Position numbers and translations under genes: made by a program
Notes under the pieces: model-generated
What the model was told of the DNA's origin: nothing
What the model saw: only the letters and a program-made list of their open reading frames with translations
Database searches by the model: none
In this document: one piece after another, positions 12,837 to 18,301 of the stretch
Position numbering within the stretch: position 1 is the first letter of the stretch
Layout of the letters: the number at the start of each line of letters is the position of its first letter
Source: Promethearchaeota archaeon
GTDB taxonomy: Archaea > Asgardarchaeota > Lokiarchaeia > Sigyniarchaeales > SOKP01
Direction: 5' to 3'
Length of the DNA: 64,000 bases
Assembly: GCA_019057795.1 (NCBI GenBank)
Contig: JAHLWS010000075.1
Span: 1-64,000, forward strand

Positions 12837-15017
12837 TTATTTTATAAGTAGCTTTTGAATTTCCTCTGCCTTTTTGAAGCATTTTAAAGCATCTTCAAAT
12901 CTTCTAATTTCTCGATAAAGATTGCCCAAATTATAGTATCTCATAATTAAGAATTGAGGATCTTTGGTATTATGTGCTATTTCAATTGCTTTCTGGTAAC
13001 AAGTAATTGCATTGTTATATTTTCCTTTTTCTTTAAATATTAAGCCAATATTGTTCAGAGCTACTCCTCTTAGTCTTAAATACTCGTTCTCTTTTGCGAT
13101 TTTTAGGACTTTTTTAAATTTGGATAAAGCTTCATCAAAATCATTTTCTATACGAGCAATATCACCAAGGCTATTTAACCTAATACCAACAGACCGTAAA
13201 TTTCCTTCTTTTTGGGCAATATTCAATGCTTTAGAATAATAATCTTTTGCCTTATCATATTCTCTTGTGTCCAAATATACTTTTCCTAGATTGCTATATA
13301 TAAATCCTTTAAGACCGTTAAGTTCATATCTTTCAATAATGTTTAATGCTTCTTCTAGTTTTTCGATTGCTAAAGAGAATTTTTGGGCGTAAATATACAC
13401 TGCTCCCATATTTCCTAAAATTTCTACCTTGCTAGGTTCTAGTCTAAGCGAATCAAAAATATCACTTGCTTGAGCAAGACATGTGAGCGCTTCATCTAAT
13501 TTTAACTCTGATGTTAAAATTTTCCCCATAAGATTTAAGCTAGATGCTAATTGATGTAATACTCCAAGTTTTTTATTTAACTCAATTGCTTGAGAGAGAT
13601 ATTTTTTAGCTCTACCCGTATTCCCTTGTTCATGAAAAAGAGTCGCCATATTGAAATATATAGTAGAAATTCTATGTTTATTTCTATACTTTTTAGCAAT
13701 TTGAAGCGCTTTTTGATAACTTTTTAACGCTTCGTTATAACGAGCTAATGAACTTAAGATTGTTCCTTGATCGAGATAAAATAAGGAGATTTCTATTTCC
13801 TCCTTTGATTTTGAAACAATATCCAACCCTCTATTTAGGTATTCAAGTCCTTTTATTAATTCACCTTTTTCAGCGTAGGCATTTCCAGCATTAGCATAGG
13901 TTAATCCTAATAACCATTCTTCCCATTTATTTAATCTTCTTTTCTCACATATTTTGATTATTTTAAGGGCCAATCGTAATGAATCATTAAAGAATTCTAA
14001 TTCATGGTAAATTCTATGTGCGTTGTATAATTTTACCAAATGATTAGGATTAGGGAGATTTTGTTGTAAAAATTCATTAATCTGAAGATTGAACACCTCA
14101 TGTGTTAATTGATAATCAACCTTAACTAATTGAGACAAAATTTTATTGGTGTTTCCTCTTAAGACAAAAAAATTTTCTGCTATATTTTTCTCTAAAAAAG
14201 ATTTTAATATTTGTTTTAAAGCTTCCTTAATAGGTAATGTACTAAGAATTTCTACATTATCAATTAGATAACTATCAAACAGAGTTTTATTATCATCATG
14301 GTCAACCCAGATTATACTTTTGACTTTATTGAGTTTGTATAAAGCCGGTATGATATCAAAGTCATCACTACCAGAATAACCTATTACAACTATGTTATTA
14401 TCCTGTGAAAACTGTTCAAATAACTTCTTTTTATTTGGATCTAATTCAAATAAATCGAAACCACTTTTATTTTTACCAAATGCGCTTAGGGTTGACATTA
14501 TTGAATCTTTAGTGTCTTGTTTAGTTATTATATTCTTAAGAGAACCATGTAATTTATAGATAGGATATTTACCTTGGGAAAATAGCTTTTTAGGATTAAA
14601 ATATTGTTTGTAATCATTATTAGAAATTACAGGAATGATCTGATTCTTTGATATGTTAGAGTTTAAAAGGGCTAATTCTATCAAATGGTCGAAATTGGTT
14701 GTCATGACAATACTATGGTTTTTTAGTAATTCGACAAGAGTATAATGATAATGGTTAGGAGAATCGCATAAACCGTAATAGTCTAATATTTTAAGCTCAT
14801 GATCTAAAGTTCGACTTAGAGTTCCAACTAAACCCTCAAATCGTAATTCTTTAATATTTAAAATTTTCTCAATTTCAGGTTTAGGACATAGGAACTTTAT
14901 AATTTCCTCCATCATGACCTTTGCTGACGGTAAGTTAGAGGGGGTATCTATTGAGCATCCTGCTCCAACTAGAAAAATTAAATTGTCCTTAGTAAACAAT
15001 GAGTCGAAATCAAACAT
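12837..15017 (-). CDS. SIR2-like NADase domain + TPR repeats
   Basis: FLVGAGCS, TTNFD, KLHGS, VIGYSGSDDFDI, then about 9 TPR-like repeats. Confidence 0.9.
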   Translation of the reverse strand: MFDFDSLFTKDNLIFLVGAGCSIDTPSNLPSAKVMMEEIIKFLCPKPEIEKILNIKELRFEGLVGTLSRTLDHELKILDYYGLCDSPNHYHYTLVELLKNHSIVMTTNFDHLIELALLNSNISKNQIIPVISNNDYKQYFNPKKLFSQGKYPIYKLHGSLKNIITKQDTKDSIMSTLSAFGKNKSGFDLFELDPNKKKLFEQFSQDNNIVVIGYSGSDDFDIIPALYKLNKVKSIIWVDHDDNKTLFDSYLIDNVEILSTLPIKEALKQILKSFLEKNIAENFFVLRGNTNKILSQLVKVDYQLTHEVFNLQINEFLQQNLPNPNHLVKLYNAHRIYHELEFFNDSLRLALKIIKICEKRRLNKWEEWLLGLTYANAGNAYAEKGELIKGLEYLNRGLDIVSKSKEEIEISLFYLDQGTILSSLARYNEALKSYQKALQIAKKYRNKHRISTIYFNMATLFHEQGNTGRAKKYLSQAIELNKKLGVLHQLASSLNLMGKILTSELKLDEALTCLAQASDIFDSLRLEPSKVEILGNMGAVYIYAQKFSLAIEKLEEALNIIERYELNGLKGFIYSNLGKVYLDTREYDKAKDYYSKALNIAQKEGNLRSVGIRLNSLGDIARIENDFDEALSKFKKVLKIAKENEYLRLRGVALNNIGLIFKEKGKYNNAITCYQKAIEIAHNTKDPQFLIMRYYNLGNLYREIRRFEDALKCFKKAEEIQKLLIK

Positions 15018-15479
15018 TTATTAGTTTTTGTTGTATTCTAAATATACCATAAAAATTCATAAATAAAAAGATGTTAGTAAGAAACACTTGGAGAAGGATT
15101 AATTTTAATAATTAAATCTAATTAAAAATAATCTCATTAATAATATTATCTAAATAATGGACATTCTCTTCATTAAGATTTCGCAATCGCAATAGCCTCC
15201 CAGCTCTTTACATTTTTTCTTTTTCCATTAAATTTTTTACTTTATTAATCGTTTTGTTTTTTTTAATTTACGATATAGACCAATGACAGCCGAGCAGCTG
15301 TTAAACTAACTTCATTAGGACTCTAAGCATATTTTTTATTATCTCTCTTTTTTTTTTTTTCTACAAATTCTATTCACTAACATTTGTATCCAATCTGTAT
15401 TTTTTATTGAAATAAAACTGAAAAAAAAAATTTTGATCTTTAAAATTTTAAATGTAACCTTAAAGTGAATTCGTTAACT

Positions 15480-15563
15480 TTAACAACAACTTTCTTTTGA
15501 TTGGCATTCCTCATCATCATTTTTTGGTTTTTCAGAACAACATTCTTTATCTTTATCTCCCAT
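15480..15563 (-). CDS. 27-aa Cys-rich micropeptide (MGDKDKECCSEKPKNDDEECQSKESCC)
   Basis: ATG with strong SD AAGGAGGT ~10 nt upstream; own BRE/TATA; 5 Cys including two CC pairs. Below the ORF-track cutoff. Confidence 0.75.
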   Translation of the reverse strand: MGDKDKECCSEKPKNDDEECQSKESCC

Positions 15564-15605
15564 GCGTAATTAAGACCTCCTTTATAATTAATTGTTAATT
15601 GATTA

Positions 15606-15637
15606 ATAGTTAGGATCCTAACTATATAAATGTTTCG
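15606..15637 (-). promoter_or_regulatory. Perfect 20-bp palindromic operator (15606-15625) abutting TATA/BRE of the micropeptide gene
   Basis: ATAGTTAGGATCCTAACTAT; on the minus strand CGAAACA-TTTATATA directly upstream and overlapping it. Confidence 0.75.
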
Positions 15638-15705
15638 TTCCGTATAATTAAGAACTTAACAAAATGATCTATAATGTAATTATAAAGGAATAGCAAGTTA
15701 ACTCT

Positions 15706-16170
15706 TTAATATTTTAGTGAGTTTAATAATTTCTGAAGTAAATCTCCTAACTTTTTCATCTCTTCTTGATTAATTTCTGGGCAACAGCCATTAACGATCG
15801 ATTCTAAAGGAGGTGTTATATTTTTTAATTTTTTGCCTTTTTCTGTGAGTTTAACAAGAAGACTCCTTCTATCAGAGGGGTGTAATTCACGAATGACTAT
15901 CTTCTTTTTTTCCATTGTATCTACTACCCCTGTAATTGTAGATCTTGAACATCCACATTTTTCTGCTAATTCTTTAAATTGTTGGCCATCAGATTCCCAA
16001 AGTTGACTTAAAATAAAATGCTGAGTTGGTGTAAGTTCTAATTCTTGAATTTTATCTCGCTGTAATTTTTCATATTTCTTATTTAGTGTATTAATTAAAG
16101 TAAACACATCAACAATATTTTCGGGTTTACAAGAATTTTCACAACTTTCAGGGGTTTCTTCTTCACTCAT
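15706..16170 (-). CDS. MarR-family regulator, Cys-rich
   Basis: LTPTQ..IL..L...ELA....SRSTITGVVD.MEKK..V.R....DRRS..V.LTEKG; extra CENSC, CGC and GCCP. Confidence 0.92.
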   Translation of the reverse strand: MSEEETPESCENSCKPENIVDVFTLINTLNKKYEKLQRDKIQELELTPTQHFILSQLWESDGQQFKELAEKCGCSRSTITGVVDTMEKKKIVIRELHPSDRRSLLVKLTEKGKKLKNITPPLESIVNGCCPEINQEEMKKLGDLLQKLLNSLKY

Positions 16171-16181
16171 GCTCTCATCAA

Positions 16182-16201
16182 ATTATTAGGAACATAATAA
16201 T
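16182..16201. promoter_or_regulatory. Degenerate second operator upstream of marR
   Basis: ATTATTAGGAACATAATAAT, an imperfect palindrome with 14/20 identity to the 15606 operator. Confidence 0.5.
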
Positions 16202-16558
16202 TAATATCCTTATAATCTTAATAATTCTCGATCTTATTTAATTTATTATCTTTTTTTTATCCATAATATCATAAAGAGGTTTTGTAACCTTCAATCCATG
16301 ACTAAGAATTAATTTATAAATGTTTCTTTTTTTTTTAAGGATATGATAATAACACGAATTAAACTAATTCTATTTGTTCTTTTAAAGTAAAAATTTCTTT
16401 TATATCTTATATTTGACATTTTCGGATAATTATTAAGTACTTATTTTATTTAGGTGTTTTTGATTATTAGAGAATTGAAAATAAGTCAAATATTTTTTGT
16501 GGTTGAGGAAATTATTAAAAATTGAAATTTAAAACAATAAATTAGAGAAAATCATTAG

Positions 16559-18301
16559 TTGATAGATTTTAAAAACAGGTTATATAAAATTATTGAGATT
16601 TTTACTATCAAAAATGTTAGTTACTTATCAGTAGTCTTAAATTTAGCTAGTATTATTTTAGGAATAATTTACCTAGTAAAACCTTTATATTCTTTTTTAT
16701 GGGATGTTTTTGGGATTATTTTATTAATAAGTCTATTTGTCAATCTTTTACTTGTATATCTTAATTTGGATAAAATAAATAATGCGAATAGATTAGGAAA
16801 AAGAACGAGCTTACTTTGTTATTTTTATTTAGTTTTTGTGATTTTTGCTATGCTAAGTTTGATGTCAGGTAATTTATCCACTTCTATAACATATTCAAAT
16901 GAAATAATTGAAAACTTTGGAGCGTATTTAACAACCTATTTTTCTTATTTTGGGATTTTAATTTATGGCATTTTTATAGGATTAATTGATATTAAAAACA
17001 TCAAAAACAAAAATTTTTGGGAATTCAAAAAAAGGTTTGAAGGAAATAAATCTAAAGAAATTATTAGAGCTAAAGAAATATTGTATAAAATTTTTACGAT
17101 TCTTACGCGGGTGATTTTTATTATTGGTATTATTTTTGCGATTAATGTATTATTTGGTGTATTTGAAATAATAACAACTGGTATCGTTTTATTTACACCT
17201 CAATTTGGAACATTCTTTTCATTTATATTTTTGGCAAATACGATTATATATTTAAAATTAAAAAAGAAAAAATGGAATCCTAAAAAATATTATAGAACAG
17301 CAATTATTGGAATTCTAATTTCTGGGATTTCTATGACGCCTTTTTTTTTAAATCATTCCATAGTAATAAATGCTGAGAATAAGTTTTTAGATATGTTTGG
17401 TCAAGATTGGCGGGAACAAATCCCCGTTGAAGTAAATAGTTATTTTTTACAAACAACTTTTTCAATTCCAGGTTATTTTTTAGGAATTCCTCCTAAAAGC
17501 AGTATTATTGAAGAACAAACTTTATTCTATAAAGGCGAAGGAATAAACCTATACTTTGATGCTTACATGCCACTAAATCGAGGGAAAAACCTTCCTGGAG
17601 AAAATTCAACCATTATTAGGATCCATGGTGGTGGGTGGGTTTCGGGGGATAAAGGACATATGAACATGATGCAGATGAATAAATATTTTGCAGCTCAAGG
17701 ATACATAGTATTTGACATACAATACGGATTATTTGACGGAACGATGCCTTTTGTTGATCCTAATACACCCGATTATAATAAGGGAGATTTCAATATCGAT
17801 GATATGATGCGTCATCTCGGCATTTTCACTATTTTTCTCGCTGAACACGCAGATGAATACGGAGCTAAATTAGACTCTGTATTTATTAGTGGAGGATCTT
17901 CTGGAGGCCACCTTGCATCTGCTATGGCTTTAGCAATAGCAAGCAGAAAATATACGGATATTTTTAGTCAAAATTTAACAATAAAAGGTTTAATCCCATT
18001 CTATCCCGCAAATGGTCAAATGGTTTATTTTGGAATTGATGGAAAAGAAGAATTTAAAAACCCTGAAAAGCTTATTGAAGAAGATAGTCCACCGTGTTTA
18101 ATTTTCCAAGGTACCCATGATATTCTTAATTATTTTAGTATAACAAATAATTTTAGAAATACCTATTTATCTGAAGGAAATTATGAATGTGCTATATTAT
18201 GGATGTTATTAGGTGGACACGCAAGCGATTTTTATTTTTCAGGTTATTATAACCAGATTTTTTTGTATTATATGGAGCGATTTTTGTATTTTTATCATTA
18301 A
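16559..18301 (+). CDS. Multi-TM membrane-anchored alpha/beta hydrolase (esterase/lipase)
   Basis: About 7 N-terminal TMs; HGGGW oxyanion motif, GGSSGG nucleophile elbow, D (GTHD) and H (GGHA). Confidence 0.85.
   Translation: MIDFKNRLYKIIEIFTIKNVSYLSVVLNLASIILGIIYLVKPLYSFLWDVFGIILLISLFVNLLLVYLNLDKINNANRLGKRTSLLCYFYLVFVIFAMLSLMSGNLSTSITYSNEIIENFGAYLTTYFSYFGILIYGIFIGLIDIKNIKNKNFWEFKKRFEGNKSKEIIRAKEILYKIFTILTRVIFIIGIIFAINVLFGVFEIITTGIVLFTPQFGTFFSFIFLANTIIYLKLKKKKWNPKKYYRTAIIGILISGISMTPFFLNHSIVINAENKFLDMFGQDWREQIPVEVNSYFLQTTFSIPGYFLGIPPKSSIIEEQTLFYKGEGINLYFDAYMPLNRGKNLPGENSTIIRIHGGGWVSGDKGHMNMMQMNKYFAAQGYIVFDIQYGLFDGTMPFVDPNTPDYNKGDFNIDDMMRHLGIFTIFLAEHADEYGAKLDSVFISGGSSGGHLASAMALAIASRKYTDIFSQNLTIKGLIPFYPANGQMVYFGIDGKEEFKNPEKLIEEDSPPCLIFQGTHDILNYFSITNNFRNTYLSEGNYECAILWMLLGGHASDFYFSGYYNQIFLYYMERFLYFYH

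Follow-up and report, generated by a model that had tools for sequence, protein, structure and literature searches.

A MarR-linked cysteine-pair micropeptide gene in Asgard archaea: a conserved 0.9-kb module with a possible arsM ancestry

The marR-peptide locus

The 64,000-nucleotide stretch analyzed here (the window; positions 1 to 64,000 of contig JAHLWS010000075.1, assembly GCA_019057795.1, Promethearchaeota archaeon) carries on its reverse strand a gene for a cysteine-rich MarR-family regulator followed, after a spacer of 142 nt, by an 84-nt gene (including the stop codon) for a 27-residue acidic peptide with two vicinal cysteine pairs. A first-pass annotation of this sequence had read the locus as a regulated cysteine micropeptide. 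That outline is partly supported by the comparisons below, with a function that we infer, and it missed both the putative arsM origin of the peptide and the HgcA-like context of its relatives. The 27-aa open reading frame (ORF), its Shine-Dalgarno-like motif, and the CENSC, CGC, and CC motifs of MarR reported by that annotation are all present. The features of the locus are as follows.

15706..16170, reverse strand: marR, 154-aa cysteine-rich MarR-family protein, predicted winged-helix repressor (Pfam PF01047 match, AlphaFold model, cysteine conservation)
15480..15563, reverse strand: gene of the 27-aa acidic peptide MGDKDKECCSEKPKNDDEECQSKESCC, with vicinal pairs C8C9 and C26C27 and an extra C20 in the window copy (conservation in relatives)
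15606..15625, no strand: putative operator site 2, perfect 20-bp palindrome ATAGTTAGGATCCTAACTAT (half-sites kept in relatives)
15609..15622, no strand: core of operator site 2, GTTAGGATCCTAAC (between TATA box and peptide gene)
15623..15641, reverse strand: promoter core of the peptide gene (invariant or near-invariant columns of a 22-row intergenic alignment)
15623..15630, reverse strand: TATA box TTTATATA of the peptide gene, preceded by AACGAAAC, which resembles a transcription factor B recognition element (BRE)
15647..15660, no strand: putative operator site 1, degenerate here (GTTAAGTTCTTAAT) and GTTAGGATCTTAAT in relatives (conserved alignment block)
15575..15582, reverse strand: Shine-Dalgarno-like AAGGAGGT, 11 nt before the peptide ATG
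15421..15430, reverse strand: run of ten T, likely an archaeal oligo-T terminator, 50-59 nt past the peptide stop
16186..16213, reverse strand: marR promoter block, half-sites ATAAGGATA and TTCCTAA around TATA-like TTAATTATTA (alignment of marR upstream regions)
15355..16246, reverse strand: extent of the conserved module, from the marR promoter to ~125 nt past the peptide stop (blastn against loci L045-L049)
15315..15326, no strand: third operator-like 12-mer TTAGGACTCTAA with one mismatch, of uncertain status, just outside the conserved block

Conservation and coding signal of the peptide gene

The module was compared with 22 related loci from Asgard metagenome-assembled genomes (MAGs; L045-L066) whose MarR proteins are 68-94% identical to that of the window. 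In the window it forms a 0.9-kb island with flanks that differ even from those of relatives 93-94% identical, and blastn against L045-L049 returned a single block of 836-922 nt at 84-95% identity, ending at 15355-16246. The peptide gene lay 3' of the orthologous marR in all 22 loci, as an ORF of 27-40 codons beginning 117-158 nt past marR in 21 of them and, in L054, as an ORF with a complete promoter 1177 nt downstream, behind an inserted gene. The first-pass annotation had proposed looking for the peptide and the palindrome beside marR in related genomes, and both were found to be conserved there.

The consensus of the family is MxDKDxxCCxExxKxDKEESQSKEGCC, with M1, C8, C9, C26, and C27 invariant in all 22 aligned rows (the window and 21 loci). 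Insertions and deletions comprise whole codons only, the cysteine codons vary between TGT and TGC, and GAGG, GGAG, or AGGT stands 10-17 nt ahead of the ATG in 20 of the 22 loci. Among the 15 colinear sequences (seven rows with insertions or deletions were left out beforehand), entropies at the first, second, and third codon positions were 0.59, 0.42, and 0.93, such that third positions are the most variable, and the mean ratio of nonsynonymous to synonymous polymorphism (pN/pS) was 0.45 over 105 pairs. This codon periodicity, together with the exclusively in-frame length changes and the pN/pS value, argues for coding constraint on the peptide. The earlier view of the small ORF as a real gene with its own promoter thus gained comparative evidence at 22 of 22 loci, and the 27-codon ORF is very probably a genuine regulated peptide gene.

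Several relatives carry altered copies. In genome G049 (L046/L039), an in-frame tandem duplication of 27 nt (CCSEEPKND-CCSKAPKND) yields a 36-aa peptide with three cysteine pairs. L049 has, ~989-1188 nt past the marR stop and right after an Isf-like gene, a second and promoterless peptide copy reading MGDKDKGCCDEEPKNNDKESQSNEYCR, having lost its last cysteine pair; it has the appearance of a duplicate in decay, left behind when the Isf-like gene was inserted. Two matches to the peptide profile lie ~860 nt apart in G241.

One alternative is that the ORF is a functionless remnant of a deleted arsM gene or a translated leader, with the promoter and transcript being conserved rather than the peptide. 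Truncation of arsM to a stub does occur (a 45-aa stub in L071 of genome G017, described below), the second copy in L049 has decayed, and the linker residues between the cysteine pairs evolve fairly freely, as the pN/pS value indicates. Nevertheless, the ORF stays open at every related locus although MarR identity falls to 68%, its four paired cysteines never vary, its length changes respect the frame, its start codon and Shine-Dalgarno-like motif are conserved, and the nine-codon duplication in G049 has added a third cysteine pair. In addition, the T-run after the ORF, with T-rich runs at the equivalent position in most relatives, and the variable genes downstream indicate that it is not the leader of one fixed gene. 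The remnant or leader explanation is consequently considered very improbable.

Distribution and annotation of the peptide family

A profile search of 1.84 billion proteins with the peptide family gave 11 representatives at E<=0.001, all of 25-48 aa and of the same type. At the whole-genome level, 400 genomes were sampled from the phylum and the profile matched 32, every one from a single family: 29 (of 54) belong to genus g22 and 3 (of 42) to the genus of the window (counting G000, the window's own genome), with none of the 265 genomes from other families of the phylum matching. The gene is single copy in G000, where no second copy was found. None of the 22 peptides matched a Pfam family at E<=10, and the window peptide had no NCBIfam match.

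The peptide had been described as unannotated, which holds insofar as it has been given no name; its exact 27-aa sequence is nevertheless already in a public protein collection, and longer relatives are labeled 'hypothetical protein'. Since common gene callers apply a minimum ORF length of about 90 nt, a family with a gene of only 84 nt may be under-called in annotations. A literature search, largely outside subscription journals, found no description of the peptide or of an Asgard MarR-arsM pair. Two other identities were rejected: a precursor of a ribosomally synthesized and post-translationally modified peptide, as no maturation enzyme recurs among the neighbors, and a rubredoxin- or zinc-finger-like peptide, as the family has CC pairs only, without a conserved CxxC knuckle.

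Promoters and operators

The spacer between marR and the peptide gene reads, in gene sense, GTTAAGTTCTTAAT, ACGGAACGAAAC, A, TTTATATA, GTTAGGATCCTAAC, ~25 nt, AAGGAGGT, 11 nt, and ATG. The intergenic alignment displayed near-invariant blocks at site 1 (GTTAGGATCTTAAT), at AACGAAAC abutting TTTAWATA, and at site 2 (AGTTAGG-NN-CCTAACT). The half-sites AGTTAGG and CCTAACT of site 2 are conserved among relatives with a variable center of 2-4 nt, giving the operator pattern GTTAGG-N2-CCTAAC, and site 1 starts 38 bp ahead of site 2 wherever it was detected in relatives and likewise in the window. The overlap of a BRE/TATA element with a perfect 20-bp palindrome noted in the first-pass annotation is present and amounts to 3 nt. 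No other palindrome in the window has arms of at least 10 nt; first-order Markov simulations produced 0.31 such palindromes per 64 kb, with 30% of 200 simulations containing at least one. Its reality therefore follows from conservation in relatives rather than from the sequence alone, and its position between TATA box and gene start in those relatives supports the proposal that it serves as an operator. Binding of MarR to GTTAGG-N2-CCTAAC is likely.

Upstream of marR, the block ATAAGGATAT-WAAYTATTA-TGNWCCTAAY is kept in all 21 aligned regions and ends ~24 nt before the ATG, a predicted leaderless archaeal gene layout with operator half-sites on either side of a TATA-like element. A 'degenerate copy' of the palindrome had been placed at 16182-16201; 14 of its 20 positions do match, but its conserved part is only the half-site TTAGGAAC (16186-16193), which pairs with ATAAGGATA across the TATA-like TTAATTATTA. 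In L050, a complete peptide-type operator precedes marR.

The operator is essentially unique in the genome. Allowing up to one mismatch, the 14-mer operator had only two other sites in G000, no more than a control pattern, and an 18-mer at up to three mismatches gave no excess over control patterns in the same genome. A genome scan, which had been suggested as a check, hence revealed no sites above control patterns outside the module, no further convincing operator copy is present in G000, and no regulon beyond the module is claimed. Within the window, TTAGGNNCCTAA has three matches at up to one mismatch (chance mean 2.77 per 64 kb), all within 15315-16197. The outermost, at 15315-15326, is separated by 30-40 nt from the end of the block that relatives share, with an A/T-rich stretch before it; it may be the remnant of a second promoter copy, or chance.

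Because the operator is essentially unique, the peptide gene appears to be the only evident target of MarR besides marR itself. This would also suit a peptide that acts as partner of the regulator, held to MarR by a mixed disulfide or by a metal(loid) bound to both, and tuning or resetting repression as feedback. The two genes move jointly as a 0.9-kb unit while the flanks change, and the N-terminal tail of MarR and the peptide are both acidic and cysteine-bearing, a resemblance in composition that the first-pass annotation had pointed out correctly. Such a partnership has no direct support, and the peptide gene can be parted from marR by an inserted gene (L054). Furthermore, in genome G053 (L040/L065), the peptide would have been kept without a working partner, unless through an assembly error, as marR there has three stop codons and the peptide gene is intact. 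A partner role was accordingly judged quite improbable. The G053 locus is otherwise unusual in that its marR (69% identical) is interrupted near the 3' end and abuts the contig end, its operator is intact, and a 4Fe-4S ferredoxin-like ORF begins 26 nt past the peptide stop.

The MarR regulator and its thiols

The MarR protein matched Pfam PF01047 at 61 bits (cut-off 24.6), and its AlphaFold model (mean predicted local distance difference test score 79) has the canonical helices a1-a6 and a two-strand wing. Among the best 120 of 123 matches at E<=1e-10, every source name is an Asgard MAG. Its cysteines occur as C10/C14 (CENSC), C72/C74 (CGC), and C129/C130 (CC). According to the model, C10/C14 are in a disordered N-terminal tail, C72/C74 at the end of a3 and in the turn ahead of the recognition helix (predicted at residues 76-88, with R76 as its first residue), and C129/C130 in a low-confidence loop between a5 and a6. 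Among 31 homologues from both MarR clades described below, C129/C130 are invariant and C72/C74 are at least 90% conserved.

The main rival to metal(loid) sensing is a thiol-redox module, in which an OhrR-like sensor of oxidant or disulfide stress would leave the DNA upon oxidation of C129/C130 with the N-terminal cysteines or C72/C74, and the peptide would be a small redox buffer or an electron relay, e.g., with the neighboring Isf-like flavoprotein. The best NCBIfam match of MarR is indeed the peroxide sensor OhrR (NF052638), the 2-Cys OhrR of Xanthomonas campestris (2pex/2pfb) is among its best solved-structure matches, and C129 aligns with the resolving Cys127 of the Xanthomonas protein (2pex) in the a5-a6 region. 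Moreover, 11 of 22 loci have a gene for an Isf-like flavin mononucleotide (FMN) reductase after the peptide gene, starting only 22 nt from the peptide stop in L060. The NCBIfam score is, however, far below the cut-off (52.3 vs. 200 bits), and no MarR cysteine aligns with the OhrR sensing position: the alignment with 2pex starts at residue 28, there is no cysteine in the aligned a1 region, and C10/C14 fall in the unaligned, disordered tail. Neither an ohr nor a peroxiredoxin gene was found among the scanned neighbors (2.5-kb flanks), and the nearest relatives of the regulator are predicted to control arsM. The redox alternative was therefore regarded as rather unlikely.

The arsM sister clade and probable origin of the peptide

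In a midpoint-rooted tree of 41 MarR sequences (fragments <90 aa dropped), all 22 peptide-linked rows group together in one clade (support 92/89). Another 14 rows, 44-59% identical to the window MarR, make up the second clade (support 84/75), and in 11 of them a full arsM gene lies 120-330 nt downstream, the other three being L067, L071, and L073. L073 has an arsM-like start at a TTG codon, and the one second-clade arsM checked against NCBIfam matched NF008823 at 334.9 bits (cut-off 263). The N-terminal cysteines of ArsM have a role in As(III) binding, and second-clade ArsM N-termini read ...SSCC-x(5-40)-SCCG. The peptide resembles them in its two cysteine pairs, short polar linker, and place after a homologous MarR and promoter, and it differs in lacking the methyltransferase domain. 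In L071/L004 (G017), also of the second clade, a 45-aa ORF 159 nt past marR is colinear with the ArsM N-terminus and stops right after the second cysteine pair (…KSCCG), with no arsM remainder behind it, as would be expected of an independent truncation of arsM. This stub protein is identical on six contigs and has three NCBI accessions as 'hypothetical protein'.

The promoters of the two clades are also alike. Those of arsM consist of TTCGG-NN-CCGAA, then TTCGGAACC abutting TTTATATA, then ..AACTAT, and the peptide promoter ACGGAAC-GAAAC-A-TTTATATA-...AACTAT is colinear with them, with the ACGGAAC-TTTATATA arrangement found ahead of arsM as well. By this alignment, the peptide and arsM promoters are homologous. 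MarR proteins with C-x-C-(S/T)-R-ST pair with TTAGG..CCTAA operators and those with CCC-S-(Q/P/S)-ST with TTCGG..CCGAA operators, which, as judged from these sequences, is a co-variation of operator half-site and recognition helix between the clades. L009 (G026), from another family, combines an R-type MarR with a peptide-type operator (GGTTAGGAGCCTAAC) ahead of arsM. Profile-profile comparison (hhalign) of the peptide with ArsM placed CC..CC on CC..CC (E 1e-4, probability 57%, 34 columns), a weak similarity.

Taken from the CC...CC arrangement of the sister arsM genes, the homologous promoters, and the operator-helix co-variation, the somewhat favored view is that the peptide derives from the ArsM N-terminus: its gene would be what is left of an arsM, still under the old promoter and regulator, and would since have been conserved as an independent gene. 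As the tree does not nest the clades, the direction from arsM to peptide follows from arsM being the widespread form. No arsM was found in G000.

Proposed mechanism

The locus was interpreted as a self-contained 0.9-kb sensor-effector module of one Asgard family (Promethearchaeia/Lokiarchaeia), with an even chance that it works by soft-metal(loid) derepression of the cysteine-pair peptide. In this mechanism, a dimer of the cysteine-rich MarR would occupy GTTAGG-N2-CCTAAC directly downstream of the TATA box of the peptide gene, as well as the auxiliary site 38 bp upstream and the half-sites at the TATA-like element of its own leaderless promoter, and thereby block transcription. Release from the DNA would follow when MarR thiols are engaged by a thiophilic signal, for which As(III), Sb(III), or Hg(II) is the likeliest candidate; candidate sensing thiols are C129/C130 in the flexible a5-a6 loop, C72/C74, and the cysteines of the disordered N-terminal tail. 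The 27-aa acidic peptide would then be made from its own short transcript and bind the same type of ligand via its two terminal cysteine pairs, as a buffer or carrier. We infer repression, inducer, and ligand binding from the sequence comparisons; for a soft metal(loid) as ligand of peptide and MarR, the case is about balanced. An arsenic- or mercury-type signal is suggested by arsM at the place of the peptide in the sister clade and by the HgcA-like genes downstream in most relatives. The earlier proposal had included Cu and Zn among the metals; origin and context favor arsenic- or mercury-type soft metal(loid)s and not general Cu/Zn homeostasis. Its term 'metallothionein-like' stands as an analogy of logic, a repressor with a cysteine peptide, but not as a family assignment, since the peptide has no metallothionein family match and only four conserved cysteines in 27 residues (five in the window copy).

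Several observations weigh against this interpretation. The palindrome alone is within chance for an AT-rich window, the peptide is short and of low complexity, and its pN/pS value reflects strong constraint only on the cysteines. OhrR as the best named MarR match and the Isf-like flavoprotein beside the module in half of the loci fit a redox signal equally well. Regarding the origin, the similarity to ArsM is weak, the EIKKIVRxxYG helix found at the ArsM N-terminus is missing from the peptide, the 11 matches at E<=0.001 in the 1.84 billion-protein library included no ArsM, and the peptide clade is sister to the arsM clade and not nested in it, with a midpoint root only. Finally, the neighbors of the module in the window, an esterase-like protein, a SIR2-TPR protein, and a PlsY-like protein, are not metal-related.

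Neighboring genes in relatives and the HgcA-like methyltransferase

Thirteen of the 22 loci, among them L045 (3349-5025), L047, L048, L052, L053, L055, L056, and L059, encode a CpaM::HgcA-like corrinoid methyltransferase downstream of the module and on its strand. The protein (553-562 aa in these loci, 553-567 aa with the G000 copy included) comprises an S-adenosylmethionine methyltransferase domain, an HgcA-like corrinoid domain (NVWCAARG), and a membrane domain, with NCBIfam scores below the respective cut-offs (HgcAB_like 169/285, HgcA 165/275, and CpaM 129/180). In G000, the corresponding gene (L084:1465-3165, on G000:C78) is on another contig than the module, with no MarR, peptide, or operator ahead of it. 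The Isf-like FMN reductase gene stands between or after the peptide and HgcA-like genes in its 11 loci, and a third subclade has an aldehyde:ferredoxin oxidoreductase and a TIM-barrel gene in place of those neighbors.

Fused hgcAB genes have been recorded in Asgard archaea (Lin et al., 2023, PMC10083202), and an ArsR-like regulator links hgcAB to arsenic in a bacterium (PMC10349881). Acquisition of Hg(II) has been proposed for the cysteine pair that HgcB carries on its disordered C-terminal tail, with the cysteines at the C-terminus of MerA cited likewise (Cook et al., 2020, PMC7305189). The peptide is similar in that its flexible chain, predicted to be disordered, terminates in a cysteine pair; the tails described there belong to larger proteins, whereas the peptide is free-standing. 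The neighbor also differs from HgcA itself in being a fusion under the HgcA cut-offs, and none is encoded in this window.

The HgcA-like context and these cysteine-pair tails make a carrier role for the peptide attractive. In an extended and doubtful form of this idea, the peptide would belong to a new family arisen by arsM truncation and act as a free-standing arm capturing As(III), Hg(II), or a related soft metal(loid) as substrate and delivering it to the downstream CpaM::HgcA-like methyltransferase, replacing the built-in cysteine-pair tails of ArsM and HgcB; an Asgard system for metal(loid) methylation would then have the cysteine-rich MarR as its arsenic-type switch. A complex prediction for the CpaM::HgcA-like protein with the 37-aa peptide of L056 scored 0.00, which counts neither way.

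Comparison with known systems

SmtB-SmtA of cyanobacteria is a system in which a metal-released repressor controls a small cysteine-rich metal-binding protein; SmtB belongs to the ArsR/SmtB family and SmtA is a folded 56-aa metallothionein with a Zn4 cluster. The present module is comparable in that a dedicated, putatively thiol- or metal-sensing repressor stands beside one small cysteine-bearing and possibly ligand-binding protein. It differs in the MarR family of the regulator and in the 27-aa peptide, with its four paired cysteines, predicted disorder, and no metallothionein family match.

Another parallel is AdMarR_ars of Achromobacter sp. As-55, a repressor bound to the marR and arsV promoters until As(III)/Sb(III) releases it via C36, C37, and C157 (Yu et al., 2021, bioRxiv 10.1101/2021.08.12.456183). 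Both are MarR-family regulators with a vicinal cysteine pair and further cysteines, and AdMarR_ars adjoins arsenic genes as the sister clade adjoins arsM. However, the known system is bacterial, its cysteines are C36/C37 near the N-terminus and C157 instead of C72/C74 and C129/C130, and its target as described there is the arsV monooxygenase, not a micropeptide. The two regulators have no close sequence relation, given the Asgard sources of the best window-MarR matches, and the window module is outside an ars locus, with only the sister clade adjoining arsM.

New here, as read from the comparisons, are the arsM-linked sister MarR clade, the promoter homology, the operator-helix co-variation, and the HgcA-like linkage in 13 of 22 loci. 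If the proposed origin is true, the module would be a clean, datable case of a functional micropeptide gene derived from the 5' end of an enzyme gene with promoter and regulator retained. Metalloid sensing would extend thiol-based MarR control of this kind, so far in bacteria and from one preprint, to Asgard archaea, where the operator has already been predicted and the co-variation of helix and operator can be read. A small cysteine-pair carrier tied to the HgcA-like genes of Asgard archaea would further bear on what HgcA-type enzymes evolved for and on their repeatedly noted arsenic link. The parts are small and easy to handle in vitro (a 154-aa regulator, a 27-aa peptide, and a 60-bp promoter).

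Additional observations on the surroundings of the module

A search of 15000-16600 for known RNA families at E<=1 returned nothing relevant, and the sequencing runs listed for 15380-16260 were DNA or unlabeled metagenomes from sediment, cold seep, and subsurface, with no RNA run among them. Directly downstream of the module, 12837-15017 (reverse strand) encodes a protein of 726 aa that combines a SIR2-like domain at the N-terminus with long TPR arrays, and the upstream neighbor of the module in L055 is a TIR-TPR protein; both architectures are reminiscent of defense or signaling NTPase-less STAND-like proteins. In L045, the closest relative (MarR 94% identical), a heliorhodopsin gene (1284-2105; Pfam PF18761, E 2e-95) was identified upstream of the module.

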